25,109 nucleotides of DNA. Source: Coleofasciculus sp. B1-GNL1-01 (GTDB lineage: Bacteria > Cyanobacteriota > Cyanobacteriia > Cyanobacteriales > Coleofasciculaceae). Position numbers and translations under genes: made by a program. Location of the stretch: assembly GCA_040220235.1 (NCBI GenBank), contig JAVJTO010000137.1. One strand, written 5' to 3'. Positions within the stretch are counted from its first letter, which is position 1, and the number at the start of each line of letters is the position of its first letter. Positions 1,784 to 16,477 of the stretch are shown here, in pieces. A model generated the notes under the pieces. The model was not told the DNA's origin, did no database searches, and saw nothing but the letters and a program-made list of their open reading frames with translations.

Positions 1784-3733
1784 TTAACGGGAAACCAGGG
1801 AATACCCTTCTTCGGTTAAGCGATCGCGGAAATCTGCTATTGTCGTTTTTAACCCCTCCTGTAAAGGGATCGTCGGTTGCCAACCCAGTAACGTCTTCGC
1901 TTTCGTAATATCTGGGCGGCGACGTTGCGGGTCATCTTTCGGTAAGTCCTTAAAGATAATTTCTGCATCCGGATTCACCATATTTTGCACCGCTTGCGCC
2001 AGTTGTAAAATCGTATACTCATCCGGATTCCCCAGATTAATCGGTCCGGTATGCTCATTATTCATCAACCGAATTAATCCTTCAACTAAATCCGACACAT
2101 AACAGAAACTGCGAGTTTGTGAACCCTTGCCATACACCGTTAGGGGTTCACCCTTGAGCGCTTGCACCACAAAATTACTCACCACACGCCCATCATTTTC
2201 CAGCATTCGAGATCCGTAGGTATTAAAAATGCGAGCTACCCGAATTTCTACACCATTTTGCAGATGGTAATCAAACGCCAGTGTTTCCGCTACTCGCTTC
2301 CCTTCGTCGTAACAGTTGCCGCAAAACGCAACTCGTCCATGGCGACGCACACACACCACATGATTCTGCACATTAACGCAGTAAACATTGCCAGCATATC
2401 GAAATGGTTCTGGGGTGACTAAATGAGCGTCTTTCGCTGGTCGAATATTCACCCGATATAAATCACGACCCACCGCATGAGACACAACAGACGCCGCATA
2501 GCCGCAACGCATGGCTAATTCTTGGACATCATCAGCCAGTTGTTTGGATTTGGTGTAATAAACATAGCCATCTCCGCGCTGGGAACCATCTCCCATCATT
2601 AGCGCCTTAAACAAAATCAGCGACTGACGCTTGGATAACGATAAAAACTGGCGCGGAATATATTTCTCACCCGATTTACCCAGAGGGAGTAAAATTTCTG
2701 CCAGTTGTTTACTACAAATCCGAAATTGGTGGTCATCCGATGAGAAAAATTTAAACCCAAGGTTGGTTAAACAGTGGGTGATTTTAGCTCGACCCTCTGG
2801 ATTTTCTTGGGCAATCAGGATGTTATAGTCAGCCACATCATAGTCACGTCCACCGACAACCCGCCCTCGTCGTCGGACATGAACGCAGCCTTCAGAAATG
2901 TAGTAACCGAGGAATTCTAACCAATCATCCATCCGAATTCGCTCAACGCTCACCTTAGCATTTTTCGGTGCAGTTCCCAGTTCAAACCATTCGGGTTCTT
3001 CTCCCTGAAATTCACCCCCGGTAGGGACACGCCAAGAATGCCAATGTCGGTCTTCATCTGCACGCAAAAATTGCAATTTTCCGGTTTTACTGCGTACATA
3101 CATCCAATGATTGGGTGTTACACACAGATCGAATTTAGCATTGGCAAACCGGAGCAAATTGCCCACGTAAGGCTGCACAATATACTCATCTGGGACGTGA
3201 TACTCGACTTGATTATCGGGATTAAGAGTCGCCACTCGCACCCCTGGCTGTAATTGGGGAAAAGGAACCCAGCCATGTTCCGTTAAAATTTCAGTTTCAG
3301 CGTCATAACAACTGCGCGGTCCAATTGGATTAACATTTCCTCGATATTCTTCGGGTTGAGGATGGACTTCCGGATCACCATACACTTCTGAAGTTGAAGC
3401 TAATAAAAATCTTGCCCCTATCCGCTTGGCTAACCCCAACATATAGAGGGTACCAATGACATTTGTTTTAATCGTCTTGACAGGATTGTATTGATAGTGT
3501 ACTGGCGAAGCCGGACAAGCCAGATGGTAAATTTGGTCAACCTCTAACCGAATCGGTTCCGTAATATCGTGACGGATCAGTTCAAAGTAAGGATGATTCA
3601 GCCATTTAACGATATTTCGCTTCGTGCCAGTATAGAAGTTATCCAGACAGAGAACTTCATGACCTGCTTCCATTAACCGATCAACAAGATGGGAACCAAT
3701 AAAACCAGCACCACCTGTAACTAGAATTCTCAT
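1784..3733 (-). CDS. uxs: UDP-glucuronate decarboxylase (UDP-xylose synthase, extended SDR), intein-containing
   Basis: Start moved to the ATG at 3733 (MRILVTGGAGFIGSHL). Motifs YHLACPASPVHY, LASTSEVYGDP, (S)CYDEGKRVAE, RIFNTYG and TRSFCYVSD. Removing 2315-3310 leaves a normal extein of about 317 aa. Confidence 0.9.
   Translation of the reverse strand: MRILVTGGAGFIGSHLVDRLMEAGHEVLCLDNFYTGTKRNIVKWLNHPYFELIRHDITEPIRLEVDQIYHLACPASPVHYQYNPVKTIKTNVIGTLYMLGLAKRIGARFLLASTSEVYGDPEVHPQPEEYRGNVNPIGPRSCYDAETEILTEHGWVPFPQLQPGVRVATLNPDNQVEYHVPDEYIVQPYVGNLLRFANAKFDLCVTPNHWMYVRSKTGKLQFLRADEDRHWHSWRVPTGGEFQGEEPEWFELGTAPKNAKVSVERIRMDDWLEFLGYYISEGCVHVRRRGRVVGGRDYDVADYNILIAQENPEGRAKITHCLTNLGFKFFSSDDHQFRICSKQLAEILLPLGKSGEKYIPRQFLSLSKRQSLILFKALMMGDGSQRGDGYVYYTKSKQLADDVQELAMRCGYAASVVSHAVGRDLYRVNIRPAKDAHLVTPEPFRYAGNVYCVNVQNHVVCVRRHGRVAFCGNCYDEGKRVAETLAFDYHLQNGVEIRVARIFNTYGSRMLENDGRVVSNFVVQALKGEPLTVYGKGSQTRSFCYVSDLVEGLIRLMNNEHTGPINLGNPDEYTILQLAQAVQNMVNPDAEIIFKDLPKDDPQRRRPDITKAKTLLGWQPTIPLQEGLKTTIADFRDRLTEEGYSLVSR
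2315..3310 (-). mobile_element. Intein (332 aa) with LAGLIDADG homing endonuclease, inserted in uxs
   Basis: In-frame insertion GPRS|CYDAETEILTEHGW...VAFCGN|CYDEGK. It has Cys1, block B TPNH, LAGLIDADG-type motifs FLGYYISEG and LFKALMMGDG, block F VYCVNVQNH, terminal Asn and a +1 Cys. Confidence 0.93.
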
Positions 3734-4208
3734 AGGTTTTTCCGAATAGAGCGATCGCGTAAGCTTAGTGCGGTAAAGTCTCAAGCTCTACCATGTTACA
3801 TTGAAACCCAGACTGGCAAGTCTTCGCCATGGTTAAAATCGCTTAATTCCTTTCAGGACGTGAAATTGAGACAAATTCAACGCCCAACCCCTGACAATCG
3901 CTCTTGCCTGTGGTTATGATATTGGTTGAACTTTCTTAACACAACTAGATCTTGGGCAAACGAACGCGGTTTAGGGTGCATGATTTGAGCGTTGACGTGC
4001 CATACCTCAAGAGTTTTACCTGATTCACAGACAAAACTGCCCAATTTATTTTGGCTCAAAGGTTGTCGCTCGATCCTCACGGATCGAAGTGAGGCTATAA
4101 CCTGGCACAACGTTGCTGGGAGGTTCCCCTGAGCAATCCTCTGGCAATTTTTCCGCCAGAGATATTAATTCGGTGCTTGATTTGTATCTACCTGCTTGAA
4201 CTTAATTT

Positions 4209-6347
4209 ATGCTGCTAGAGACCTTACACTCGCCAGAGTCTGTCCTCGCTCAAATGGATACGTTCAGTACCGGGAAATTAGAACTGTGGTTTCAGCCCGT
4301 TTATCAAACAGCGACGGGTGCTGTATTACACAATGAAATACTTCTGCGTTGGCGAGACGAAGCCGGAAATCTGCACTTACCCCAGGAATTCTTACCCACG
4401 TTGTCGGATAAAGGACAACTGCAAAAGGCTGATCGCGCCGTCATTCGCAAGGCAATAGAACTCTTAGCCGAACAGCCGGATCGATGCCTGTCGATTAATC
4501 TTTCGGGAGAGGGATTAAATAACTTTGAACTAATCGAATATATCGAAACCCTCCTGGATCAGTCAGGGGTTGACCCGAAGCAACTGAGTTTTGAGCTAAC
4601 CGAATCAACCATCGCCAAAGATTTTCCCACAATTCGGGCATTTGTCCGCGAACTCAAAAGTCTCGGTTGTGCAATCATTCTGGATAACTTTGCCAGTCGC
4701 GAATTAACGCTGTTCCAATGCCAACAACTGGCGGTTGATTTGGTTAAAGTGGATGGTCAACTGATCCAACGCCTAAAAACGGAACCGAGTAGTCGCGTCT
4801 TAACCAAAGCCATTCTCGAAGGCATTCAGGCGCTGAGTCAGGTAGCGGCTAAATTTGTCAGCGATGCGGTTACCCTATCCCTGGTGGAAGAGGTTGGGAT
4901 TAACTTAGTCCAAGGACACCATCTTAAAACCCCTAGTCCAGCACCCGATTGGACGGAACTGGTTCGCCCAGAGGAGGAACAGGATTCACCCACGGCTGAA
5001 GTCCAAAAACCTACTCAATCTTGGCGCTTCCTGGTGGGAACGGGGTTTGTTCTGCTGGGATTAGGTGCAGTCGGTGTGGGGATTGCCTCCATTGGTTATC
5101 GCCTCAGCCACTTAGTTGTAGACGGTAGCACGATTAACGGGCGAATTGTGCGGCTACAAGCGCCAACCACGGGTAATATTCAAGCATTTTACGCCCAGCC
5201 AGGAGTGGTTGTTAAATCAGGACAACTTCTCGCCCGGATTAGCAAAGAACCCAGTCCCCAAGAACAAGAAGCCCTACTCCGCCTAGAACGCGCCCAAGAA
5301 CAAGAACAAATCCGCAATCAGCTTGAAAGTCTCGAATTACAAGGACAGATTCAGGTTAATGCAACTCAGCTAGCATCGGCGAAACAGTCCCTAGCATTGC
5401 TGAAAACGCAGTTACAGCAGCTTGAACGTCGAGACCAAGCCGTGCGACAAGTGGATGTAGAATTGGGGTTAGATTCGATTAAGGAACAGCAAGCTGTGGT
5501 TCAAGCGGCACAGGCAAAAGCCGAAGCTGCCCGATTAGATTATCAACGGTATCAAACTCTATTAGAAGCAGGGGGTGTATCCGCACAGGAAACGGATCAG
5601 TTGCGCTTAGTCTGGCAATCGGCACAAGCCGAAGTCAAGCAAGCCCAATCTGTCCTGGATGCGACGCAAAAGGCGGTCAATGCTGCCCAAACAGGTATTG
5701 CTCGCAGTAATCGCAATAATATTATGGGCGGGGTTCTGTCCGATCAACGGATTAGTTTGCAGCAGACGATTCAACAGCAATCTGTTGTGGTGAATACGAT
5801 GGAAGCGCAATTGGCTAAACTCAAGCAGCAGCTAAATAACAGCCAGTCTCTACAAAAAAACGCCCCTTCTCTGGTTAATGATCTCAAACAACTGCAAAGC
5901 GAACGGAAAGTACAAAATGTGTCAGCCCCCTTTGCGGGTGTTGTCTACACAGCGGAACGAGAACAAGGCGAACAGGTTAATCAGTTAGAACCAATTGTTA
6001 CGTTGCTTGATTGCAATAATCTGTGGGTAGAAACCGTGGTTAGTGCTGAACAAGCCAGTTCAATTAATACCGATAAACCTGTGACTGTCGGATTAGCAGG
6101 TTATGCCCAAACCGTCAAGGGTGAAATTGACCTGATTCAGCCAATTAGTAATATGCAACAGCTTAATAAGTTGACCCAGGTTCAAGCCCTACAGCCTGCG
6201 ATTCCACCTAAATTAGTGGGACAACCGTTGACGCGGATTACAGTACGGATTCCACCGCCGCCGCAACATGAGAATTCCCAACAGTTTTGCGGATTGGGAC
6301 AAGCGGCGAGGCTGACGTTTCCTAAGAAACTTTTTGGTAATCGTTGA
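4209..6347 (+). CDS. Degenerate EAL domain + single TM + HlyD/membrane-fusion domain (Alg44-like co-polymerase)
   Basis: The N-terminal ~245 aa has EAL-fold motifs FQPVY, NEILLRW, SINLS, FELTES, LDNFASRE, KVDG and QG. TM FLVGTGFVLLGLGAVGVGIASIGY. Lipoyl-like halves RLQAPTTGNI..VKSGQLLARI and VSAPFAGVV..GEQV flank a Q-rich coiled coil. C-terminal LLDC..CGLGQAARLTF. Confidence 0.8.
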   Translation: MLLETLHSPESVLAQMDTFSTGKLELWFQPVYQTATGAVLHNEILLRWRDEAGNLHLPQEFLPTLSDKGQLQKADRAVIRKAIELLAEQPDRCLSINLSGEGLNNFELIEYIETLLDQSGVDPKQLSFELTESTIAKDFPTIRAFVRELKSLGCAIILDNFASRELTLFQCQQLAVDLVKVDGQLIQRLKTEPSSRVLTKAILEGIQALSQVAAKFVSDAVTLSLVEEVGINLVQGHHLKTPSPAPDWTELVRPEEEQDSPTAEVQKPTQSWRFLVGTGFVLLGLGAVGVGIASIGYRLSHLVVDGSTINGRIVRLQAPTTGNIQAFYAQPGVVVKSGQLLARISKEPSPQEQEALLRLERAQEQEQIRNQLESLELQGQIQVNATQLASAKQSLALLKTQLQQLERRDQAVRQVDVELGLDSIKEQQAVVQAAQAKAEAARLDYQRYQTLLEAGGVSAQETDQLRLVWQSAQAEVKQAQSVLDATQKAVNAAQTGIARSNRNNIMGGVLSDQRISLQQTIQQQSVVVNTMEAQLAKLKQQLNNSQSLQKNAPSLVNDLKQLQSERKVQNVSAPFAGVVYTAEREQGEQVNQLEPIVTLLDCNNLWVETVVSAEQASSINTDKPVTVGLAGYAQTVKGEIDLIQPISNMQQLNKLTQVQALQPAIPPKLVGQPLTRITVRIPPPPQHENSQQFCGLGQAARLTFPKKLFGNR

Positions 6348-6400
6348 ATTGGGATTTATATCTCAATTTTTTTTGTCTGGATTCCCTTGATTGTTTACAT

Positions 6401-6571
6401 CTAGTCAAGAAACCGGGTTTCTTTGGGTAAAAGCTTGATATTTCATTGTCATCCTCACGAGAAACCCGGTTTCTAGGAATACTTGACCGACGCTCTAGGT
6501 GAGGTGACAAATGATAGTAGTGAAACCCGCCCCTACACATAATTAAAGACGCGCAATGGCACGTCTCTACA
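6401..6571. repeat. Cluster of small intergenic repeats: CTAG-bounded MITE-like element and REP-like (GTAG-type) half-palindromes
   Basis: 6401-6498 reads CTAG TCAAG...CTTGACCGACGCT CTAG and contains an AGAAACCGGGTTTCT / AGAAACCCGGTTTCT inverted pair. AAACCCGCCCCTAC lies at about 6523-6536. AGACGCGCAATGGCACGTCTCTAC at about 6547-6570 has a related copy at about 16705-16728. Confidence 0.6.
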
Positions 6572-6583
6572 TCCAAAAACTCT

Positions 6584-8689
6584 ATGACTCGACTATTTCG
6601 TTGGCAAAACATCTCGTCCTATCTCAATTGGTTAGCCCTGCTGTGTCTTTCCGCCTTCGGTTTTATTGGTTTCTACCTGCTGCGTAATCCGGAACAATTA
6701 AACCTATTAGGCATATCCGGTTTAATTAGTATGGGACTGATCGGTATTTGGCGATGGTCATGGTGGGCGCTGCAAGTGATTCGTTCCCGGATTTACCTAC
6801 ACTGGGTTTTTCCCCGATGGCGCAAACAAGCCGATCGCATCCCCTTGGATAAGTTACCGCCTGTTTGCTTATTAGTCCCAACCTATAAGGAAAAACCCTG
6901 GATCACGGAACGAGTTTTCCGGGTAATCGCCCAAGAAGCCCAAAGCCTTTCTCACCCCCTGACACTGCTAGTTACCAGTAGCAGTGATGAGGAAAATGCT
7001 GCCATCTTAAAAGTACTGAAATCTGTTGACCCGGAACTCAGTTGTATTCGCCTGATCCAAATGGTGCAGACAGGGGAAGGGAAGCGCAAAGCCATGGCGG
7101 ATGGATTACGAGAATTAGCGCGTTTAAATCTACCCCAAAATGCCGTTGTTGGTTTAATGGATGGCGATTCTGAACTAACACCTGGAACCTTACGTCGCTG
7201 CTTGTCATTTTTCCGCCTATTTCCCAAAATGGGGGCGCTGACAACGGATGAATTACCAATTGTTGAGGGCTCGTATCTGTTTTCTGAATGGTTCCATTTA
7301 CGCCTATCCCAGCGTCATTATCAAATGTGTTCGGTGTCCCTGTCGCAAAAAGTCATGTGTTTGACGGGACGCTTTTCCCTCTTTCGGGCGGAGGCGGCGC
7401 TGCATCCCACATTTGCGGATCAGTTAGAAGTAGATACGTTGGATGATTGGCTGTGGGGACGGTTTAAATTCCTCTCTGGCGACGATAAAACGACGTGGTA
7501 TTGGCTACTACGCCGGGGTTACGATATGTTGTATATCCCCGATGTGATTGTCTATTCCATTGAGACGATTTCTGGGTCATTAATGGATCGCGCTTACCAG
7601 AATATGCGCCGTTGGTATGGGAATATGCTGCGGAACAGCGATCGCGCGATCGGATTGGGTCCAGGTAAGGCGGGATGGTTTATGTGGTACTGTCTGTTGG
7701 ATCAACGGATTAGTTACTGGACGACTCTGATCACACCGGGTTCATTATCAATTTGTTTAGTTCAAGGGTATTGGTTAGTCGCCGGAGTCATTCTTTGTTG
7801 GATTCTTTGTACTCGACCAATCATTTTAACCATCATTTTCTGGGGACGACAATCTCGGCTTAAACCGATTCATTTACCTGTATTTTTAATCGCCCAGTGG
7901 AGTTCTTGTATTATCAAAATCTGGACTCAGATGAACCTTGCCCAACAAAAGTGGTCGAACCGAGGTAATCAAAGTATCTCCGCCGCCGGATCGGGTTGGG
8001 AACGGTTAGTGAAAGTGAGTGTGTCTCGTTTTCTTTATGTCTCCCAGTTATTTGGTTTTGTGATTATTTTATGTTGGTTTGCTAGCCTTCTCAGTCCCTT
8101 ACAAGATATGGCAGGTTTATGGTCAAATAGTAGCTGGGCAATGAGTCAATCGGTTCCACCGCAAATTGTTGAGGCGATTGACCATGGAATTATTCCCAAT
8201 GATGGTCAAGATGATGCCAAATCCCTCCAGGCGTTAATTAATCGATTGTCTGGTGAAGACCCGGTTCAGATTAATTTACCCATTGGTGAAATTGACTTGT
8301 TTTATCCCGTTGAAATTAATCGCAGTCACACGATTATTAAAGGGCAAGGGATGCGGCGAACGATTTTACAAGCGCATATTAGTAAACTAGAGACAGAAGC
8401 CGTTCTGGTCATTCGCCCCCGTGAATATCCTTTGACCGAAAAAGCGGAGTCTGATCAGAATCGCATTCAAGATATACATTTGAGCGGGTTTACACTTCGG
8501 AAAAAATCACCCAACTCAACTGAAAATATATCTGATGTTGGCAGTATACTTTTGGAAAATGCAGTAAAATCATCGCTGAGAAACCTTGATTTAGCAAACA
8601 GTAGCAATCGTGCTTTAATTATGCGTCACACTGAGGATGTAACTGTCGAGTATGTGTTGCCAGATACAGCAATAAAGAAAAAGGAATAA
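6584..8689 (+). CDS. Alg8-like processive GT2 polysaccharide synthase with C-terminal beta-helix (pectate lyase 3-like) domain
   Basis: Motifs GKRKAMA, MDGDS, CLTGRFSLFRA, GRFKFLSGDDKTTW, QNMRRWYGNMLR and LLDQRISYWT closely recall Pseudomonas Alg8 (from memory). TM segments flank the catalytic core. The tail after about 8160 has DHGIIPNDGQDDAKSLQALIN, LPIGEI and IKGQG, typical of a Pectate_lyase_3-type N-terminus. Confidence 0.82.
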   Translation: MTRLFRWQNISSYLNWLALLCLSAFGFIGFYLLRNPEQLNLLGISGLISMGLIGIWRWSWWALQVIRSRIYLHWVFPRWRKQADRIPLDKLPPVCLLVPTYKEKPWITERVFRVIAQEAQSLSHPLTLLVTSSSDEENAAILKVLKSVDPELSCIRLIQMVQTGEGKRKAMADGLRELARLNLPQNAVVGLMDGDSELTPGTLRRCLSFFRLFPKMGALTTDELPIVEGSYLFSEWFHLRLSQRHYQMCSVSLSQKVMCLTGRFSLFRAEAALHPTFADQLEVDTLDDWLWGRFKFLSGDDKTTWYWLLRRGYDMLYIPDVIVYSIETISGSLMDRAYQNMRRWYGNMLRNSDRAIGLGPGKAGWFMWYCLLDQRISYWTTLITPGSLSICLVQGYWLVAGVILCWILCTRPIILTIIFWGRQSRLKPIHLPVFLIAQWSSCIIKIWTQMNLAQQKWSNRGNQSISAAGSGWERLVKVSVSRFLYVSQLFGFVIILCWFASLLSPLQDMAGLWSNSSWAMSQSVPPQIVEAIDHGIIPNDGQDDAKSLQALINRLSGEDPVQINLPIGEIDLFYPVEINRSHTIIKGQGMRRTILQAHISKLETEAVLVIRPREYPLTEKAESDQNRIQDIHLSGFTLRKKSPNSTENISDVGSILLENAVKSSLRNLDLANSSNRALIMRHTEDVTVEYVLPDTAIKKKE

Positions 8690-8890
8690 AAAGAATATTA
8701 CTTTCGTATTATTCGAGGTAACTACACAGAATGAATAGTTCTTCAGAAAAGGCACTTGATATTAACTCACTAGGTATTGATGGCGAGTAAAAAGACGTTG
8801 CTTGAGATTAACAAAGTTATAGTTTTGAGCCAGTTCCTATCTGTGCTGTTGATCTTTTTGGCGATTAACATGATTTTTGGGGATTTTGAC

Positions 8891-8918
8891 TTGACAAAGT
8901 AGCTCAAAACGGTAAGCT
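8891..8918 (+). promoter_or_regulatory. Candidate sigma70-type promoter for the kinase/peptide cluster
   Basis: Perfect TTGACA (8891-8896), a 16-nt spacer and TAAGCT (8913-8918), in AT-rich intergenic DNA about 105 nt upstream of the ATG at 9023. Confidence 0.35.
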
Positions 8919-9022
8919 AATTAGCAATTGTATATTTTGAATCCTTTCGGTCATCGTTGCTTTTGATTGCATCCATTTGATTGATCGCATCCAATGGACT
9001 TCTATCCGATGAAAACCTTGCA

Positions 9023-9976
9023 ATGCCAAGTTTAACCTTAGCGAGTCTGAATCAACCAAGTGAAGAGAACTCTGATTCACTTGAATTGGATTGCCTCAAG
9101 TGGGAGGCAGAATTCTCATTTATCAGTTATGGGGTGCGTATTGGCATTCGCGTCAATAAAGCAAAGGTGTTGGAATGCCTTCCTGATTATTTGCCCCCCG
9201 GTTGGCAACCTTCCGCCTCACCCGATGTAGATCAACTGTACTCGCTGATTGGTGATGAATCGAATTATCAACTCTGGCGCGATCGCGAGATACTGGCTGA
9301 AGCGAGTTTACTGGAAACAATACTGCATACCTTAGACACCGATTTGCGCTTACAGATTGGCATGTTGGTGCAGGACAGATTGTTTGTCCATGCGGGGGTG
9401 GTGGGGTGGCGAGGACGAGCGATCGTGATTCCGGGACGCAGTTTTAGTGGTAAAACTACCTTAACGGCGGCGTTGGTACAGGCTGGTGCGACTTATTATT
9501 CTGACGAATATGCCGTATTTGACTTGCGGGGATGGGTTCATCCTTATCCCCGGCGCTTGGCAATCCGGGAATGGGAGGGAGAACAGGAGGTAAAACGGCA
9601 ATGTACCGCCGAGGAACTTGGGGGAACGGTGGGAAGTGAACCCTTACCTGTGGGGTTGGTGGCTCATGTTCAATATCAGCCGAATGTGGTATGGTGTCCC
9701 CAAAAGATTTCTGCTGGAGAAGCAGTGTTGGCGCTATTGGATAATGCGATAGTCGCTCGGACTCGACCTGAGTTTGCCCTATCTATTTTACCGAGTGTTG
9801 TTTCCGATGCTTTCAGGATTGCCGGGAAGCGGGGGGAAGCTGCAGCAGTGGCGGTAGCGTTGTTGCACCAATTGGATGATTGGATTGAGGATTCCTCAGA
9901 TATTACACCTGTCGCTTTAACCATCAAACCCGCGAACCTCCCAGAAGAAAAAAGAAAAGAAATGCGATCGCGCTAA
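9023..9976 (+). CDS. HPr kinase/phosphorylase-related P-loop kinase (type found in RiPP clusters)
   Basis: LFVHAGVVGWRGRAIVIPGRSFSGKTTL (HxG + Walker A), YYSDEYAV and VHPYPRRL. The ATG at 9023 is preferred over the TTG at 8981. Confidence 0.75.
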   Translation: MPSLTLASLNQPSEENSDSLELDCLKWEAEFSFISYGVRIGIRVNKAKVLECLPDYLPPGWQPSASPDVDQLYSLIGDESNYQLWRDREILAEASLLETILHTLDTDLRLQIGMLVQDRLFVHAGVVGWRGRAIVIPGRSFSGKTTLTAALVQAGATYYSDEYAVFDLRGWVHPYPRRLAIREWEGEQEVKRQCTAEELGGTVGSEPLPVGLVAHVQYQPNVVWCPQKISAGEAVLALLDNAIVARTRPEFALSILPSVVSDAFRIAGKRGEAAAVAVALLHQLDDWIEDSSDITPVALTIKPANLPEEKRKEMRSR

Positions 9977-10018
9977 TATTTAAGTTTTGAGATGGAAGCA
10001 AGCAACTGAGGAAAAATA

Positions 10019-10621
10019 ATGACGACGCTGCTCATTCAAACCCAAAATGTCCCCCTGACAGTGAATTTTCCTGCTCTCAAATCGATTAGTGTTGAACAAT
10101 TCTACGAATTCTGTCTAGCCAATCGCGATTTGAGAATCGAGCGTACTGCCAGTGGGGAAGTGATTATTATGCCACCAGCCTTTTCAGATACAGGGAATCG
10201 CAACATGAAAATTGCTCAACAAGTTGCGAACTGGGCAGAACAAGATGGTACGGGTGAAGTGTTTGACTCCAGCGCTGGCTTTACCTTACCCAATGGAGCA
10301 ACCCGCTCCCCTGATGCTTCATGGATTAAATTAGAGCGCTGGGATGCCTTAAGTGAGGAACAAAAAGCCTCTTTTGCACCGATTTGTCCAGATTTCGTCA
10401 TTGAGTTACGTTCTCAGAGCGATACCCTTAGTGGATTGCAAGACAAAATGCAGGAATATATTGACAATGGTACATTACTCGGCTTGTTGATCGACCGCAA
10501 AAACAGAAATGTTTATATCTACCGCCCCAATCAAGAACCGGAAATCTTGGAGAATCCTGAAACAGTCAGCGGTGAGCCAGTGCTACCAGGATTTGTCTTG
10601 CGGATGGCAAAAATTTGGTGA
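10019..10621 (+). CDS. Uma2/DUF820 family restriction-endonuclease-fold protein
   Basis: RIERTASGEVIIMPP, FDSSAGFTLPNGATRSPDASW, PICPDFVIELRS, KMQEYIDNG and GEPVLPGF; RBS-like GAGGA upstream. Confidence 0.9.
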   Translation: MTTLLIQTQNVPLTVNFPALKSISVEQFYEFCLANRDLRIERTASGEVIIMPPAFSDTGNRNMKIAQQVANWAEQDGTGEVFDSSAGFTLPNGATRSPDASWIKLERWDALSEEQKASFAPICPDFVIELRSQSDTLSGLQDKMQEYIDNGTLLGLLIDRKNRNVYIYRPNQEPEILENPETVSGEPVLPGFVLRMAKIW

Positions 10622-10701
10622 TTGACATTTAGGGAGCGCGATCGCAGCCACAAAATTTTCTGGTAAGATGCTGCCAGCCGAATTTTTAGGAGTAAACGAG
10701 G

Positions 10702-11370
10702 ATGATACCGTTAGCTAGAACTAACAAATTGCTGATTACCCAAGTCGGTGAAGAAGTTATTGCTTATGACCAAGAACGGGATACGGCACATTGTTTGAAT
10801 GCGATAGCGGCGAGGGTTTGGCATTACTGTGATGGTCAAAATACTGTTGAGGATATTGCCAAACTGTTATCAGAGGATTTAGAAGTATCGGCAGATGAGG
10901 ATGTTGATTGGCGCGGATTGGTTTGGTTGACGTTGGAGGAATTGGAGTGTTTTTATCTGATTCAGGAGTATCTATCGCAACCTATAAGTTCAGAGGTTCA
11001 GCCAGCCGATGCGTTACGGGTTTCACGGCGGAAGATGATTAAGACGGCGACGTTAGTGGGTGGATTTGCCGTAGGTTCAATGTTTCCTCTAGTTAAGTCG
11101 ATTGTTGCACCAGCGCCGGGAATGGCAACACCACAATCACCAACACCATCGCCGACTCCATCACCGACTCCCACTCCGACACCAACACCAACCCCAACAC
11201 CAACCCCCACCCCAACTCCTACATGTGAAGAACGTGGTGGTATGATAATTACCCAAACTTGTACAGTTAACGGACGCCAACTAAGTGCTAGCTGTTGTTT
11301 TCCATTTGAAAGATTGCAATGTGGAATCGACGAAAACGGAAAGCCATTTGCAAGATGCGTTAACGCATAA
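10702..11370 (+). CDS. PqqD/RRE-domain protein fused to a putative exported precursor peptide (twin-Arg leader, PT tract, 6-Cys core)
   Basis: aa 1-90 are PqqD-like (VGEEVIAYD..AHCLNAIAARVWHYCDGQNTVEDIA). aa 108-142 read SRRKMIK, a hydrophobic stretch, then PLVKSIVAPAP. aa 147-174 are 14 Pro-Thr/Ser dyads. Cys at 175, 187, 198, 199, 207 and 219. AGGAG and GAGG lie upstream. Confidence 0.75.
   Translation: MIPLARTNKLLITQVGEEVIAYDQERDTAHCLNAIAARVWHYCDGQNTVEDIAKLLSEDLEVSADEDVDWRGLVWLTLEELECFYLIQEYLSQPISSEVQPADALRVSRRKMIKTATLVGGFAVGSMFPLVKSIVAPAPGMATPQSPTPSPTPSPTPTPTPTPTPTPTPTPTPTCEERGGMIITQTCTVNGRQLSASCCFPFERLQCGIDENGKPFARCVNA
11140..11223 (+). repeat. Coding (Pro-Thr/Ser)14 low-complexity tract
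   Basis: Encoded with mixed synonymous codons (CCA/CCG/CCC/CCT; ACA/ACT/ACC), so it is not a perfect DNA microsatellite. Confidence 0.9.
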
Positions 11371-11385
11371 ATCTAGAAAAGAAAA

Positions 11386-12951
11386 ATGATAGCTTATTTC
11401 AGCACCTTCATTGTCGGTACTGTATTTTTTGTGACCGGAGTAGCTAAGGTTTTTAGTTCAGAAAAATTTATCCATCATAATTATAAATATAATTTGATGC
11501 CACCAAAGATTGTCCCTCAAGTGTCAATTACCTTTATCGGGTTTGAGACGGCTTTTGGTGTTGCTCTAATTTTGCATGAATTCCCTAAATGGCTAATTCC
11601 TGGCTCAATTATTTTGATAGTAGCTTTATCAATATTAAACTATTGGTCAACGTCTACAGGGCGCACTGACGACGATTGTGGTTGTTATGGTGGAATCGTA
11701 CTGATTACTCCTCGGCAAAGTTTGCTCTTGAATGTAGGATATATCATTTTACTGATCGCCGCTTGGCTCAGTCTCATCACCAATCATCAGACAGAAACCT
11801 GGCAATGGATACTGACATTAATTGTATGGGCATTTACTAGCCTCCTTGCATGGCTATCTAGAAACAAACCCTTAGTAGACTTCTCCCGCCTAAAAACTGG
11901 AAACCGCTGGAAACGCCGTTGGCTAAAAGATAGCACCCATGACTTACAACAAGGGTCTCATTTTGTCGTGTTCCTGAGTAAAAACTGTCCCTACTGCAAA
12001 AAATGGATACCCTTACTCAATATCATGAACACCCAGAAAGATTTACCCCAAGTCACGGGTATCATGTCCCTCACTCAGGAAGAAATCGAGACATTTAAAA
12101 GTGAACAACGGGTACGCTTCCCAGTAGTCTCCATGGATAAGCTGCTATTCGGTTACATGGTGGAAGCCTTACCCACTGCTGTCTTAATTGAAGATGGGAG
12201 AATTTCCAGTAAATGGATAGGACGAATACCCGAAGAATTTGTTAATCGTATCAAACAATACTACGAGAAAGCACTCGTCACTAAAACCAAACAGAACGGA
12301 TTTATTAAATCCCCGGAACCATTCATCCCCTTAAAATTATCCAAAACCACAATTTCCCCAGCACATCATTACCTGCAAATTGATGATTTTCTCCCAACGG
12401 AAGAGTGGAACCGCTTGCTTAACTATGCCTTAAACCAACAATCGGCTTTTACCCCAAGCGCCACCTCAACCAATGAACCAGATTATCGTCAGTCGATGAT
12501 TCTTCACTCATTGCCTGAGTTTTCCGAATTAATGGTCAAGCGAATTCTGTCAATTATTCCCCATCTCCACAGAGAATTAGAGTTAGAGCCATTTATTCCA
12601 TCTCAAGTTGAAACTCAATTGACCGCCCATAACGATGGAAATTACTACAAAATTCACAACGACAATGGAAGTTGGGAAACCACCAATCGAGAACTCACCT
12701 ACGTTTACTATTTTTACCGTAAACCCAAGCCCTTTTCGGGCGGAGAATTAGTCATCTACGACACCAAAACCGAGGATAACTCTTATGTGAAAGGCGACTC
12801 ATTTAAAATTATTGAACCTCGAAACAACAGTCTGATTGTTTTCCCTAGTCGTTACCTTCACGAAGTCCTGCCAGTCCGTTGTCCCTCACAATCCTTTGCT
12901 GATAGCCGCTTTACCGTTAATGGCTGGATTCGCAGGTCTCTGTTTAATTGA
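11386..12951 (+). CDS. Triple fusion: MauE/DoxX membrane domain + thioredoxin-like (MauD-like) domain + 2OG-Fe(II) oxygenase (prolyl 4-hydroxylase-like)
   Basis: About 5 hydrophobic segments with FFVTGVAK and DCGCYGG (MauE-like). FLSKNCPYCKK and EALPTAVLIEDG give a CxxC thioredoxin fold. YYKIHNDNG (HxD), FSGGELVIYD, YLHEVLPV (distal His) and SRFTVNGWI mark the oxygenase. Confidence 0.8.
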   Translation: MIAYFSTFIVGTVFFVTGVAKVFSSEKFIHHNYKYNLMPPKIVPQVSITFIGFETAFGVALILHEFPKWLIPGSIILIVALSILNYWSTSTGRTDDDCGCYGGIVLITPRQSLLLNVGYIILLIAAWLSLITNHQTETWQWILTLIVWAFTSLLAWLSRNKPLVDFSRLKTGNRWKRRWLKDSTHDLQQGSHFVVFLSKNCPYCKKWIPLLNIMNTQKDLPQVTGIMSLTQEEIETFKSEQRVRFPVVSMDKLLFGYMVEALPTAVLIEDGRISSKWIGRIPEEFVNRIKQYYEKALVTKTKQNGFIKSPEPFIPLKLSKTTISPAHHYLQIDDFLPTEEWNRLLNYALNQQSAFTPSATSTNEPDYRQSMILHSLPEFSELMVKRILSIIPHLHRELELEPFIPSQVETQLTAHNDGNYYKIHNDNGSWETTNRELTYVYYFYRKPKPFSGGELVIYDTKTEDNSYVKGDSFKIIEPRNNSLIVFPSRYLHEVLPVRCPSQSFADSRFTVNGWIRRSLFN

Positions 12952-12956
12952 ATACC

Positions 12957-14069
12957 ATGGAAACCATTTTTATTCAAATCGCCGCCTATCGCGATCGCGA
13001 ACTCATCCCCACAGTCCAAGATGCGATCGCCCAAGCTACCCACCCTGAACGCCTCAGTTTCGGTATTTGCTGGCAATACCAAACTGAGGAAGAGTTAAAC
13101 TCGATTAATTTACTGAGGCAAATTAACAACTGTCGGATTAAAGCTATCCCAGCTACCCAATCTCGTGGTGCAGGCTGGGCACGGGCAAAAACCCAAAAAC
13201 TCTGGCAGGGAGAACGTTATACCCTACAAATCGACTCCCACATGCGCTTGGCAACAGGGTGGGATACCCAGCTTATTGAAATGCTTGCTCAATGTCCTAG
13301 TGATAAAGCTATTCTCAGTGCCTATCCTCCCGCCTACGAACCGCCCAGAAACTTACTGGGAAACACACCGAGTCGATTAGTAGCCAATAGATTTAATGAA
13401 TCTGGTATTCTCGGTCTTGTCGCTACAGATGATTTGAGCAACTATTCCAGCCCACAGCCCGGTGCTTTTATTGCTGCTGGATTTGTTTTTTCAGATGCTT
13501 TGATCATTAAAGAAGTCCCCTATGACCCCAATATATACTTTCTCGGAGAAGAAGTCCTCTTTTCAGCTAGAGCCTGGACAAGGGGTTGGGATATTTTCCA
13601 TCCTCATCGTGTCGTCTGCTGGCACTATTACCATAGCAATGGCAAACGCTCCGTACACTGGGCAGATCACCAAGACTGGTGGACTCATAATCAAGTGTCT
13701 GAGCAAAGATTCAGACAAATTACAGGGAGTGAATTTTCCTCTAAAAAGTTTAAAGTCTATGGTTTGGGGACAACTCGCACGTTAGCCGAGTATGAAGCTC
13801 TTACAGGAATTCATTTTCAACAAAGAAGAAAAGATAACGATTTAGAACTACTCCAACTTGGCGTCAGAACTCAGATAGACTCTCCAACTGCCGATAGAAT
13901 CAGAACCTTGCTCAAAGAAGACATTGACTGGACATCTCTCATCGACACGGCATATCACCACGGACTCCTGCCACTCTTATACCACAATCTCAATACCATC
14001 TGTCCAGAAGCCGTTCCCTCTGCTACATTTGTGACATTGCTCAAGTTATTCGTACTTATCCCAACTTAA
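12957..14069 (+). CDS. Skp1-type hydroxyproline N-acetylglucosaminyltransferase-like protein (GT60/GlcNAc family) with an N-terminal nucleotidyltransferase remnant at its C-terminus
   Basis: IFIQIAAYRD, GAGWAR, LQIDSHMR (DxH), LSAYPP, FIAAGFVFS, EVPYDP, FLGEE, RAWTRGWDIF and YGLGTTRTLAEY. The ATG at 12957 lies 5 nt after the upstream stop; the alternative TTG at 12948 overlaps that stop. Confidence 0.8.
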   Translation: METIFIQIAAYRDRELIPTVQDAIAQATHPERLSFGICWQYQTEEELNSINLLRQINNCRIKAIPATQSRGAGWARAKTQKLWQGERYTLQIDSHMRLATGWDTQLIEMLAQCPSDKAILSAYPPAYEPPRNLLGNTPSRLVANRFNESGILGLVATDDLSNYSSPQPGAFIAAGFVFSDALIIKEVPYDPNIYFLGEEVLFSARAWTRGWDIFHPHRVVCWHYYHSNGKRSVHWADHQDWWTHNQVSEQRFRQITGSEFSSKKFKVYGLGTTRTLAEYEALTGIHFQQRRKDNDLELLQLGVRTQIDSPTADRIRTLLKEDIDWTSLIDTAYHHGLLPLLYHNLNTICPEAVPSATFVTLLKLFVLIPT

Positions 14070-14404
14070 ATTGGCAAACTCTCATCGAAACTGCCAGGAG
14101 ATTGGGAAGTTTACGAATGCTCTATTTTGGACTTTTGTTAGCCAGCAACCTCCTGGATACAACCATTCCCCAAGACATTTGGCTCAACATAAAAGCCGAC
14201 ACCGTAGCCCTATCCCTAGCCAACCAAGTCTGCCAGCATCTTTTTGGCAAAGGCAATCGTCAGTCCTCTTTTTTCCGTTACTTACCCACCCCGATCAATA
14301 TCCGGATTCAACGCTTTATTTTTTATGCCAGAATCCGGGAAAAAATGCAACACAAAACTCAGTACATTGCCGACTTCCTGCGGCGAGAAGTAATACAGCC
14401 CTGA
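13833..14404 (+). pseudogene. Nucleotidyltransferase-family (NTP_transf_5-like) domain with central deletion and frameshift
   Basis: Frame A (13833-14026) reads ELLQLGVRTQIDSPTADRIRTLLKEDIDWTSLIDTAYHHGLLPLLYHNL..PEAVP, the family N-terminus. Frame B, from 14027, reads ICDIAQVIRTYPNLNWQTLIETARRLGSLRMLYFGLLLA, the family C-terminus. The catalytic LKG..DxD core is absent. Confidence 0.65.
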
Positions 14405-14836: not shown

Positions 14837-15451
14837 TTAAGACAAATGTTGTTCACATCGCTGAAAAATATAGCGCAGTAAACCTAAAATCTCGTCGAGA
14901 TGAGCAATTCCATAGAGTAATGTTTCATACACCTCACCTTCAGTTGTTAATTTATAAAACCGCCAACCATCTCCATTGGTAACGATTCCAAATACATCAA
15001 TCTCCTGCTCGCGTTGGCGATTTTGCCAGGAACACGCTTGCATTTCTACTAAACACTGAGCTAATCCTTGCTCAAAGTCATCTTTTTTGGCTTCAACAAT
15101 ACAGAGATAAGGAGCTTCAATATACGCCTTACGTTCAGCAATCAAGTAATCAACATTTCCTGTGGTTATATCAGAGTCTAGAGCCGCCCCTTTCCATATT
15201 TTCAACTTCTTATAGGGTTGTATAGCTTCTTCGCAAATTGCATCAATCACTATTTTTTTAGATTCTTCATACTTTTGTAAGTCAAAACATTGTAATCTAG
15301 CCCAGCGTTCTTGGAAAAAGGGACTGGGTATAACAGATTGGCTATCAATATTCCAGAGTAATAATTCAGTGATGCTTAATTGCTTGTAAGCTTCTGTGGT
15401 ATTAAAACTAGCAAAGTTTTTTTTCTTTCGCTTTTTTGCATTTGACGACAT
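14837..15451 (-). CDS. Hypothetical protein with a PD-(D/E)xK restriction-endonuclease-like fold
   Basis: GNVDYLIA..LCIVEAKKDDFEQGLAQCLVEM and VFGIVTNGDGWRF (D..ExK and TxG..W motifs, HsdR-N-like). Confidence 0.7.
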   Translation of the reverse strand: MSSNAKKRKKKNFASFNTTEAYKQLSITELLLWNIDSQSVIPSPFFQERWARLQCFDLQKYEESKKIVIDAICEEAIQPYKKLKIWKGAALDSDITTGNVDYLIAERKAYIEAPYLCIVEAKKDDFEQGLAQCLVEMQACSWQNRQREQEIDVFGIVTNGDGWRFYKLTTEGEVYETLLYGIAHLDEILGLLRYIFQRCEQHLS

Positions 15452-15574: not shown

Positions 15575-16477
15575 CTATTCGTTCACCTCTGAAACTGAGA
15601 AATCAGCAAAATCGACATACACATCTTTCGGAGTTGCCCAAGACGGATCACCACCGCCAAAAAAGGTGGAGAAAAATATACCATCAATTTTCAGGTCTTC
15701 AACGGTGCGAAATGTCAATCCTTGTTCATCTAAAACCATATTGCCATCCAACCAAACTTTAACCCGACCATTGGCTTGACCTGGTTCATTAAGGACAACT
15801 TCTTGCTCAATATGATGCCAAGTTCCAGGGATAAATTGCCAATTCCCCCGACCAATTGATGTGCCGTATTCGTCACTGGTGGGTAGATAGGCATACAGTT
15901 CCCCATCGCCATTGCGTCTCCACATAAAGCGCGTCGAAAATCCATCGGTTCCATCAGGCGTTGTCCCGCCACTAGCACCGTCACCGCCGTACAGTCCCGG
16001 CAATTTCCCCCCCTTCACAAAGTCAAAGTCGTCGGAAAAACGAACATAATAACTCAAGCGCAGGGAGTCTTTAGCGGGTAAACCTAAATCCGCATAAAAC
16101 TGCGTACCTCCTAAGGGGGCATCATTTTTTCGAGAAACTGTAGGGCTAGCTGAACCCGCCGGATAGTTTACCCGCAGCACTTGAGCAAATCTGCCGTCGG
16201 CATCTTTAATCACTTCACTATTTTCTAAACCCCATTGTTTCTCACTTTTAAACTGCCAAGATTGCTGCCAATCCGTTGCGGCAAAGCTATCTGACCAAAG
16301 CGGGGTAACATCAGTGTTAGAGGCTACATCTTGACTGGTTTCTGTGGAATTGCTTAAAGCAGAAGAGGACTCTATTTCATTTGAAGCAGTCTGAGCGCAA
16401 CTATTCAGCATGATGACTAAAAAAGCTGCACTTAAGAATTGACCTGAAGCGGTTAGATGCTTAAATTTGATTGACAT
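15575..16477 (-). CDS. Polysaccharide lyase family 14-like lipoprotein (alginate/glucuronan lyase type)
   Basis: Lipobox-like LNSC after a hydrophobic signal, then a Ser/Thr-rich linker. LRVNYPAGS, FDFVKGGKLPGLYGG, GFSTRFMWR, ELYAYLP and FFSTFFGGGD. Confidence 0.78.
   Translation of the reverse strand: MSIKFKHLTASGQFLSAAFLVIMLNSCAQTASNEIESSSALSNSTETSQDVASNTDVTPLWSDSFAATDWQQSWQFKSEKQWGLENSEVIKDADGRFAQVLRVNYPAGSASPTVSRKNDAPLGGTQFYADLGLPAKDSLRLSYYVRFSDDFDFVKGGKLPGLYGGDGASGGTTPDGTDGFSTRFMWRRNGDGELYAYLPTSDEYGTSIGRGNWQFIPGTWHHIEQEVVLNEPGQANGRVKVWLDGNMVLDEQGLTFRTVEDLKIDGIFFSTFFGGGDPSWATPKDVYVDFADFSVSEVNE

Follow-up and report, generated by a model that had tools for sequence, protein, structure and literature searches.

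What kind of product is made by the gene cluster at positions 9023–14404 of a contig from the cyanobacterium Coleofasciculus sp. B1-GNL1-01 (JAVJTO010000137.1, assembly GCA_040220235.1)? The window is the whole 25,109-nucleotide stretch of this DNA that was analysed. All genes of the cluster are co-directional on the plus strand in the list of open reading frames (ORFs). They encode an HprK-like peptide kinase (9023–9976; 317 aa from ATG 9023, the longest ORF starting at TTG 8981), a Uma2 protein (PF05685, E 4.9e-44; 10019–10621), a putative peptide precursor of 222 aa (10702–11370), a 521-aa fusion of MauE, thioredoxin-like (Trx) and 2-oxoglutarate (2OG) oxygenase domains (11386–12951) and a 370-aa glycosyltransferase of family 60 (GT60; 12957–14069). 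A sequence-only reading of this DNA had proposed a system akin to peptides that are synthesized on ribosomes and modified after translation (RiPPs), and all four genes that it described are present where it placed them on the plus strand. Their order holds, but the Uma2 gene intervenes between kinase and precursor. The gaps of 15 and 5 nt that it gave for the last three genes are right for a glycosyltransferase start at ATG 12957; from the alternative TTG 12948 the gene overlaps its upstream neighbour by 4 nt. Profile searches matched PqqD, MauE, 2OG-FeII_Oxy_3 and GlcNAc, and NTP_transf_5 scored below its cut-off. The arrangement is not due to chance, because the gene order recurs in a metagenome contig (locus L065) and the kinase–precursor pair in 15 of 15 genome loci. 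The cluster is probably a Gram-negative variant of the kinase/NTP-transferase/recognition-element peptide systems exemplified by linear polyphosphorylated peptides (LPPs), with a RiPP recognition element (RRE) in cis, a leader resembling a twin-arginine translocation (Tat) signal, and a tailored stalk-and-head core.

The 222-aa protein reads as a precursor in three parts: an RRE domain, then a Tat-type signal acting as leader, then an 80-aa core. The PqqD domain (residues ~1–95) is the precursor N-terminus itself rather than a discrete protein, and its Pfam match covers residues 18–68 (PF05402; 10753–10905, plus strand; E 1.7e-7, 31.9 bits against a cut-off of 23.4). Tat signals follow a consensus of an [ST]-R-R-x-F-L-K-like motif, a moderately hydrophobic region and an AxA c-region. 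The corresponding elements in the precursor (11023–11127, plus strand) are SRRKMIK (11023–11043), the protein's one hydrophobic segment (residues 117–131) and APAPGMA, which ends at residue 142. When 31 sequences from the two phyla Cyanobacteria and Acidobacteria are aligned, R109 and R110 stand in every one (31/31), and S108 and K114 are kept in at least 90%. The twin arginines are followed there by a moderately hydrophobic stretch and a Pro-containing c-region with a small-x-small end, and this site lies at a fixed distance from the RR motif in both phyla. TatC is encoded in the genome of the window. Beyond the putative cleavage site, a Ser is found among the first four core residues in 27 of the 31 sequences (Ser146, position +4, in the window), and acidobacterial loci almost always show A-x-A before the predicted cut and x-x-S-C after it. 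The core itself consists of a Pro/Thr tract (residues 143–174; 11128–11223, plus strand) and a 48-residue head (11224–11367, plus strand) with the spacing C-x12-C-x10-CC-x8-C-x14-C. The tract has 15 Pro, 13 Thr, 3 Ser and 1 Gln, not the 14 Pro and 14 Thr/Ser counted earlier; the earlier count of six Cys is correct. An EYLxQP sequence after the PqqD domain was considered as a YxxP-like leader motif and dropped, being absent in Acidobacteria.

The precursor belongs to a large family. Its 81 homologues share an N-terminus of about 140 residues at 50–94% identity, and their C-termini are hypervariable, Cys-rich and very different in length, with members of up to 328 aa. The genes occur in one to three tandem copies, several genomes having two or three precursor paralogues. 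Full-length relatives were found by genome and metagenome scans in Cyanobacteria (L001–L006, L063–L069) and Acidobacteria (L007–L015). A profile built from the 31-sequence alignment retrieves, at E<=1e-30, 965 representatives, each standing for a 50%-identity cluster. Relaxing the limit to E<=1e-10 brings their number to 5,267, but this second set may also contain ordinary PqqD proteins. Every one of the 150 best profile matches has RR 60–170 residues into the protein, and 122 of them have [ST]RRxx..[KR]. Predicted cores mostly hold an even number of Cys (6 in 43, 8 in 27, 10 in 15, at least 12 in 22 and none in 17; n=149), and five of the 149 best representatives are dense in Pro and Thr. The cleavage-site heuristics behind these figures, and behind the core compositions of single loci given below, are crude, misplace the cut in a few rows (e.g. 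L006, L009) and were used for composition only. Distribution is patchy: the leader occurs in one of 40 other genomes of the taxonomic family. An exported, disulfide-rich, RRE-fused precursor, as the sequence-only reading had it, is supported by family anatomy, conservation and co-occurrence, and is the likely identity of the 222-aa protein. In the literature within reach, which leaves out subscription journals, no RRE-fused, Tat-signal precursor family and no bacterial GT60 peptide glycosylation were found described, and one paper, PMC13381572, proved relevant.

The kinase is a conserved partner of the precursor. An orthologue adjoins it in all 15 genome loci, and likewise in metagenome loci in which the flank is visible. 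The P-loop GRSFSGKTT (residues 138–146) is intact, and H123, G143, K144, S160 and D161 are invariant. A complex of the kinase with precursor residues 1–105 is predicted with an ipSAE of 0.78, against 0.00 for the best of three controls; the mark applied to this score is reached by 116 of 157 solved complexes and by 2 of 215 mismatched pairs. Contacts are 100% consistent between runs, with a partner pLDDT of at least 84. The predicted interface places kinase residues 230–261 on the PqqD strands (precursor residues 11–33). The prediction supports binding of the kinase to the PqqD domain.

LPPs are products of Bacillota made by LppA/K/B/S/D/N (Popov et al., Nat Commun 2026, PMC13381572). According to the part of that paper available here, LPP clusters carry one to three precursors of 35–200 aa with conserved N-termini and variable C-termini, and are embedded in capsule or polysaccharide loci. 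The LPP kinase puts several phosphates on core Ser3, leader removal is RRE-dependent and performed by a signal-peptidase-type enzyme, deletion of the NTP transferase caused no detectable change, and LPPs are called restricted to Bacillota (PMC13381572). As far as this source goes, the present system shares with LPPs the combination of HprK-like kinase, PF14907-type NTP transferase (a remnant in the window) and PqqD-type RRE, the precursors with conserved N-terminus and variable C-terminus in one to three copies per cluster, a leader cut of type-I-signal-peptidase type (predicted here), a Ser near the core N-terminus, and a patchy distribution within polysaccharide loci. Measured against the same part of the text, the differences are as follows. 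(i) The RRE is discrete in LPP clusters, whereas here it is fused to the precursor and discrete only in two variant loci (L103, L104). (ii) A SipW-like peptidase and an MsbA-like exporter serve LPPs; here there is a twin-arginine signal with AxA, and neither protein is encoded in the window. (iii) Cores here are Cys-rich and accompanied by MauE-Trx, with additional GT60, 2OG, cupin and FkbM modules. (iv) The hosts are Cyanobacteria and Acidobacteria, and no YxxP leader motif is seen. The kinase and precursor agree with LPP clusters, the RRE and export genes do not, and the PF14907-type NTP transferase survives in the window as a remnant alone and intact in relatives. No ORF of the window encodes a Peptidase_S26 or ABC exporter; in L011, and there alone, an S26 gene is encoded 2.2 kb downstream. 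In its logic the system is LPP-like, yet several LPP features are missing and others are added. The earlier statement that this gene set is matched by no characterised RiPP class calls for an update: the kinase/NTP-transferase/RRE/signal-peptidase logic has a precedent in LPPs (PMC13381572), while the RRE–precursor fusion, Tat-like signal, MauE-Trx, 2OG oxygenase and GT60 have none in the available account of them. If the assignment is right, the LPP family extends beyond Bacillota.

Other known systems resemble the cluster in part. The NCBIfam HPr-rel-A system (TIGR04352 kinase A, TIGR04353 PqqD_rel_X) has the same kinase–PqqD pair and supplies the best-scoring models for the kinases, but scores of 49–84 bits against 200, and of 20 against 35, exclude membership. 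In phosphorylated lasso peptides such as paeninodin and pseudomycoidin, an HprK-like kinase and a PF14907 transferase tailor a ribosomal peptide via a PqqD-type RRE; the present cluster differs in having no lasso cyclase or B2 protease and in export via a signal peptide. Glycocins (sublancin, glycocin F) are glycosylated in the cytoplasm by GT2 enzymes, are disulfide-bonded with the help of thiol-disulfide oxidoreductase genes, and use double-glycine leaders and ABC/C39 exporters. They share with the predicted product the pairing of glycosylation and disulfides in a ribosomal peptide, and they differ in lacking RRE, kinase and Tat-like signal. The glycosyltransferase of the window is of PF11397, and there is neither a double-glycine leader nor an ABC/C39 exporter. 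MauA, the small subunit of methylamine dehydrogenase, is Cys-rich, has a twin-arginine leader and needs MauE and the thioredoxin-like MauD. The likeness lies in a small Cys-rich protein with a twin-arginine signal, a MauE and a Trx-like partner; here, unlike there, the context holds no tryptophan tryptophylquinone cofactor or dehydrogenase, and MauE and Trx form one polypeptide.

The MauE-Trx-2OG fusion protein is the candidate for two of the proposed modifications. MauE (E 6e-18) accounts for residues 1–158 with five transmembrane (TM) segments, the thioredoxin-like domain has CPYC at residue 201 (11986–11997), and the 2OG-FeII_Oxy_3 domain (PF13640, E 7.5e-19) spans residues ~326–518 (12361–12939). 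Occurrence of MauE follows the cysteines: MauE or MauE-Trx adjoins 11 of 11 cyanobacterial loci with Cys-containing cores (window, L001, L002, L003, L005, L063–L068) and none of three with Cys-free cores (L004, L006, L069). In the L007 locus, from a Blastocatellales metagenome-assembled genome (MAG), a FliB-like protein stands with a MauE-Trx-redoxin at 10438–13433. Among solved structures, the 2OG domain matches 6T8M best (E 5.8e-6), an entry identified as Dictyostelium PhyA (PMC7864055). The iron triad, H424-N-D426 and the distal His, aligns with that structure. By these likenesses the domain is an enzyme of the prolyl hydroxylase domain (PHD)/prolyl 4-hydroxylase (P4H) type that probably hydroxylates Pro, its most likely reaction.

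Eight other proteins from metagenomes and MAGs are full-length MauE-Trx-2OG fusions (58–87% identity), and the precursor that goes with one of them is seen in L065. A Dolichospermum MAG protein (P0101) has a cupin-like domain behind MauE-Trx where 2OG sits in the others; its Pfam accessions are PF13621, PF02373 and PF08007 (Cupin_8, JmjC and Cupin_4). In two samples of 400 genomes, one from the phylum and one from the order, the fusion was found only in the genome of the window, which has the fused 2OG copy alone. Stand-alone 2OG relatives of about 300 aa (50–65% identity) occur in 60 of 400 sampled cyanobacterial genomes. No GT60, PqqD or kinase gene lies within ±1.5 kb of them in 28 loci, and six full neighbourhoods hold purH, ankyrin, hflX and other unrelated genes. 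These stand-alone proteins (L035–L062, e.g. L035 1195–2073) carry a conserved N-terminal domain of about 100 aa. In a tree of 54 2OG domains (one short row was dropped) the fused forms make two long-branched clades, and a single origin is not rejected (p-AU 0.197). As judged from these relatives, the source of the fused domain was a stand-alone family, widespread in cyanobacteria, without linkage to GT60. Taken together, these patterns suggest that the oxygenase is functionally tied to MauE-Trx in the sub-lineage with Pro-rich core starts.

The glycosyltransferase raises the question of which residue receives the sugar. Its GT60 domain (Pfam GlcNAc PF11397, E 2.3e-73) has the metal-binding type of motif, D93-S-H95, that goes with a DxD/DxH enzyme of this family. 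A PDB sequence search with the protein returned a chance-level match alone, to an epimerase (E 0.17). Orthologues are intact GT60-NTP_transf_5 fusions of 655–705 aa. GT60 occurs in nine of 400 genomes of the order, five of the nine being such fusions of about 700 aa, and in none of six same-genus genomes. NTP_transf_5 also follows in L001–L004, L006, L007, L009, L011 and L012, and it is intact there and in L065; in L003 (11506–13482) it is fused to an FkbM methyltransferase. GT60 is present in all three loci with P/T-dense cores and visible downstream genes (window, L065, L004) and in none of 13 loci with less P/T-dense cores. In the densest 12-residue stretch, all 12 residues are Pro or Thr in the window and L065, and 8 of 12 in L004, where the core is (PPRTT[RE])n with no Cys and no MauE. 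Two further loci, L103 (6447–10929) and L104 (6718–10957), carry, besides genes for a separate PqqD protein and an HprK-like kinase, those for an RR-signal protein with a poly-Thr tail and for a GT60-NTP_transf_5 fusion; the fusion lies between the PqqD and poly-Thr-tail genes on one side and the kinase on the other. The acceptor candidate of 212–220 aa has a KRRAL(L/I)TAGW…AQAQ signal and then the poly-Thr tail, made of TTTAA-type repeats with zero Pro in L103 and containing a run of 15 Thr in L104; a KilA-N Pfam match (E 1e-7) is found in the L104 copy only. Lone GT60 genes in L102 and L105 stand in unrelated contexts (DndB, VWA) and are uninformative on the acceptor. Thr, not Pro, is the feature common to all five GT60 contexts. 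Each accessory enzyme has a matching feature in the core, as had been claimed.

In the Skp1 pathway of Dictyostelium and Toxoplasma, the prolyl 4-hydroxylase PhyA acts first and Gnt1, a GT60 enzyme, second. The sequence-only reading had transferred this order to the window: the 2OG domain would make 4-hydroxyproline (Hyp) in the (PT)n tract, and GT60 would add GlcNAc to Hyp, giving an extensin-like stalk. The likeness is real in that a PHD-type hydroxylase and PF11397/GT60 stand side by side with a Pro-containing acceptor, their genes only 5 nt apart, each with a good family match and with the HxD…H residues of the hydroxylase aligned to those of PhyA. L065 shows the triad of 2OG, GT60 and Pro-rich core as well; L004, L103 and L104 do not. 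In these three, GT60-NTP_transf_5 orthologues of 53–63% identity adjoin Thr-rich tails with no hydroxylase within ~8 kb, and the L103 tail is free of Pro. The hydroxylase–GT60 pair is thus found in two of five GT60-NTP loci (window, L065), and it is not conserved among GT60 orthologues as in the Skp1 pathway, whose substrate, moreover, is not an exported peptide. This type of 2OG domain occurs in one of five GT60-NTP genomes, at a distance of 76 kb from the GT60 locus. Its fusion partner in the window is MauE-Trx rather than the glycosyltransferase, and its stand-alone relatives are not neighbours of GT60. Judged from these neighbourhoods, GT60 in the wider family does not need Pro to be hydroxylated first. 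Thr O-glycosylation is likelier than Hyp glycosylation because the tracts that accompany GT60 are rich in Thr, and one of them, in a locus without a nearby hydroxylase, is free of Pro. In Dictyostelium and Trypanosoma cruzi, mucin-type O-glycosylation of Thr begins with GT60 polypeptide alpha-GlcNAc-transferases. They share with the window enzyme the family and the Thr/Pro-rich repetitive acceptors, and they differ in being eukaryotic Golgi membrane enzymes, the present ones being soluble, bacterial and fused to NTP_transf_5. There is a little better than an even chance that GT60 glycosylates Thr of the stalk. Glycosylation of Hyp is rather doubtful, and the complete Skp1-like sequence of two steps is unlikely.

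In the mechanism favoured here, the PqqD/RRE domain (residues ~1–95) would stay in the cytoplasm and dock the tailoring enzymes. (i) The HprK-like kinase would phosphorylate a Ser or Thr near the core N-terminus in the cytoplasm, by analogy with LppK on Ser3. (ii) GT60 would O-glycosylate Thr (or Ser) of the stalk. (iii) The PhyA-like 2OG domain would hydroxylate, most likely, Pro of the stalk. (iv) Membrane-bound MauE-Trx, with Trx and 2OG facing the cytoplasm, would form three disulfides. (v) The folded, modified core would be exported by Tat and freed by signal peptidase I after Ala-x-Ala. Tat accepts folded cargo. All tailoring would precede export, since kinase, GT60 and NTP_transf_5 are soluble, nucleotide-substrate enzymes (neither the kinase nor the GT60 protein has a hydrophobic segment or signal) and Trx and 2OG appear to face inwards. 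In this genome the NTP_transf_5 step would have been lost through a deletion, and a Uma2 gene inserted into the operon.

Several points weigh against this account. Its chemical steps, export route and cleavage are inferred from domain content, conservation and co-occurrence, not from biochemistry. The N-terminal position usual for a Tat signal is not found: 107 residues, including the folded PqqD domain, precede the RR motif, which is unusual for such signals. The Tat assignment follows from the motif, and the segment could be an uncleaved signal anchor. The kinase has no Pfam match and meets NCBIfam HprK_rel_A weakly (E 4e-13), at 49 bits far under the cut-off of 200; the score of its predicted complex expresses the confidence of a model rather than a measured value. 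Apart from L007, acidobacterial loci with 6-Cys cores show no linked MauE-Trx, so the module is not universal. As to the stalk, the solved structure that the 2OG domain matches best is that of the Skp1 prolyl hydroxylase itself, 2OG goes with a Pro-rich core in two of two loci where it is seen, PF13640 proteins are encoded elsewhere, unlinked, in four of five GT60-NTP genomes, and the co-occurrence of GT60 comes from few lineages, the window and L065 being close kin, as are L103 and L104. Finally, the window copy lacks the NTP_transf_5 core, has a Uma2 gene and may be partly defunct.

This last point leads to the suggestion that the cluster is a decaying remnant in this genome and its product no longer made. 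The L065 contig has the same genes in the same order at 82–91% nucleotide identity, with a kinase–precursor spacing of ~24 nt, no Uma2 insertion and an intact GT60-NTP_transf_5 protein of 655 aa. Compared with it, the window has a frame-shifting deletion of ~515 bp (junction near 14017–14028) that removes NTP_transf_5 residues 368–519. What is left is the start of the domain (nt ~13920–14042, plus strand; the first ~42 of 249 profile positions, 22.4 bits against a cut-off of 31.2) and an out-of-frame C-terminal remnant (14003–14398, plus strand) that matches residues 520–651 of the L065 orthologue by tblastn and blastn. Of the GT60/nucleotidyltransferase gene described in the sequence-only reading, the GT60 half is intact and the nucleotidyltransferase half broken. 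The Uma2 gene lies in an insertion of ~800 bp (9889–10687) that is missing in relatives. Relatives in public runs have the intact form: an RNA-library contig (run X5) joins 9889 to 10688 and is thus without the insertion, a DNA contig (run X1) carries it, and contigs of both runs are longer by ~504 bases at 14028/14029. A search of four same-genus genomes did not turn up the cassette. The kinase, precursor, MauE-Trx-2OG and GT60 frames, however, are whole and keep their catalytic motifs, the operon need not be broken by the Uma2 gene, which runs in the same direction, and deletion of the NTP transferase left detectable LPP products unchanged in the available part of the LPP study (PMC13381572). 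A product lost to decay is quite unlikely on this evidence.

In favour of the main account, contigs from RNA libraries of three studies (88–99% likeness) cover kinase to precursor and 2OG to GT60 to NTP_transf_5 of close relatives; they cannot exclude DNA carry-over, nor prove transcription or a single transcript. No public run held at least half of the window, and nothing is drawn from the gap at 11261–11654 (Cys head and start of MauE), which is uncovered in four runs. In three RNA-library runs, contig depth over the Uma2 region (10017–10646) is 15–100 times that over the adjacent genes, with loose ends at 10017 and 10646; this excess indicates that the sequence lies in other contexts or organisms in those runs.

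Export by Sec or YidC, with disulfides formed in the periplasm and Trx (and 2OG) facing outwards in the manner of MauD or ResA, would change the order of events. The Trx part resembles periplasmic oxidoreductases of ResA, TrbB, PedC and StoA type (NCBIfam), and the L007 homologue matches MauD (E 7e-19). Charges on the fusion protein point the other way: loop 1 has a net +3, the 30 residues after TM5 have +6 and the other loops are negative, so that by the positive-inside rule the segment after TM5, and with it Trx and 2OG, would lie in the cytoplasm. This side suits the oxygenase because Fe(II) and 2-oxoglutarate are needed, and the same holds for the 2OG- and cupin-type oxygenases fused behind Trx in other proteins. 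The twin arginines, in addition, are invariant. A periplasmic route is accordingly improbable, and Tat export of a core folded in the cytoplasm is preferred.

The weakest alternative, a protein that is never released and stays N-in/C-out as a surface glycoprotein of the exopolysaccharide (EPS) or biofilm layer with the RR segment as uncleaved anchor, draws on the single hydrophobic segment with basic residues before it, on the EPS genes around the cluster, on the glycan operons that precede acidobacterial loci and on family members as long as 328 aa, but is very unlikely given the small-x-small site at fixed spacing from RR in two phyla, the hypervariable C-termini in one to three tandem copies that look like RiPP precursors, and the removal of the LPP leader by a signal-peptidase-type enzyme in the accessible part of that report (PMC13381572).

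The surroundings of the cluster are of polysaccharide type. The window flanks encode a UDP-glucose dehydrogenase, an epimerase, an EAL-HlyD fusion, a 701-aa GT2 and a PL14 lyase. The EAL and HlyD fusion and the GT2, which has a long C-terminal extension, occupy 4209–8689 on the plus strand, and the PL14 polysaccharide lyase lies downstream on the minus strand (15575–16477), so that an exopolysaccharide module encloses the peptide cluster. In L008, L009, L011 and L012 (~3400–9900) the trio of kinase, precursor and NTP_transf_5 directly follows a conserved five-gene glycan operon, the acidobacterial operon comprising a Polysacc_synt_2 dehydratase, a UDP-GlcNAc 2-epimerase, GT4-type transferases and a WecA-like Glycos_transf_4. 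Two further features of the window are recorded here. A 666-aa NAD-dependent epimerase/dehydratase (1784–3784, minus strand) has a split Pfam match, with LAGLIDADG_3 at residues 392–453; the insertion looks like an intein-type element. Directly downstream of the cluster, a 204-aa ORF (14837–15451, minus strand) has no Pfam or NCBIfam match.

If the proposed assignment is true, Cyanobacteria, Acidobacteria and further groups have a rich and unstudied store of disulfide-rich peptides that they secrete. The design would differ from that of described RiPPs in three respects. The recognition domain would stand in cis on the substrate. The leader would double as a Tat signal, with housekeeping Tat and signal peptidase in place of a protease and an exporter of the cluster's own. 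The disulfides, the sugars and the hydroxyls would all be in place when export begins. The add-on modules (MauE-Trx, GT60, 2OG, cupin, FkbM) would form an exchangeable set, and the sequence of a core would tell which of them to expect. The fullest version of the scheme, with the kinase recruited by the RRE in cis, a mini-mucin- or extensin-like stalk O-glycosylated on Hyp or Thr by the PhyA-like and GT60 enzymes, a cystine-knot-like head made by inward-facing MauE-Trx and Tat export of the folded product, is improbable as a whole. If it were true, this Hyp/Thr pathway completed in the cytoplasm would give the first case of Hyp-linked glycosylation in bacteria, and with it the first Tat-signal leader of any RiPP-like class. 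The window is a rare member of the family that unites a PhyA-like hydroxylase with a Gnt1-family transferase, and it makes mucin- or Hyp-type O-glycosylation of a bacterial peptide directly testable.

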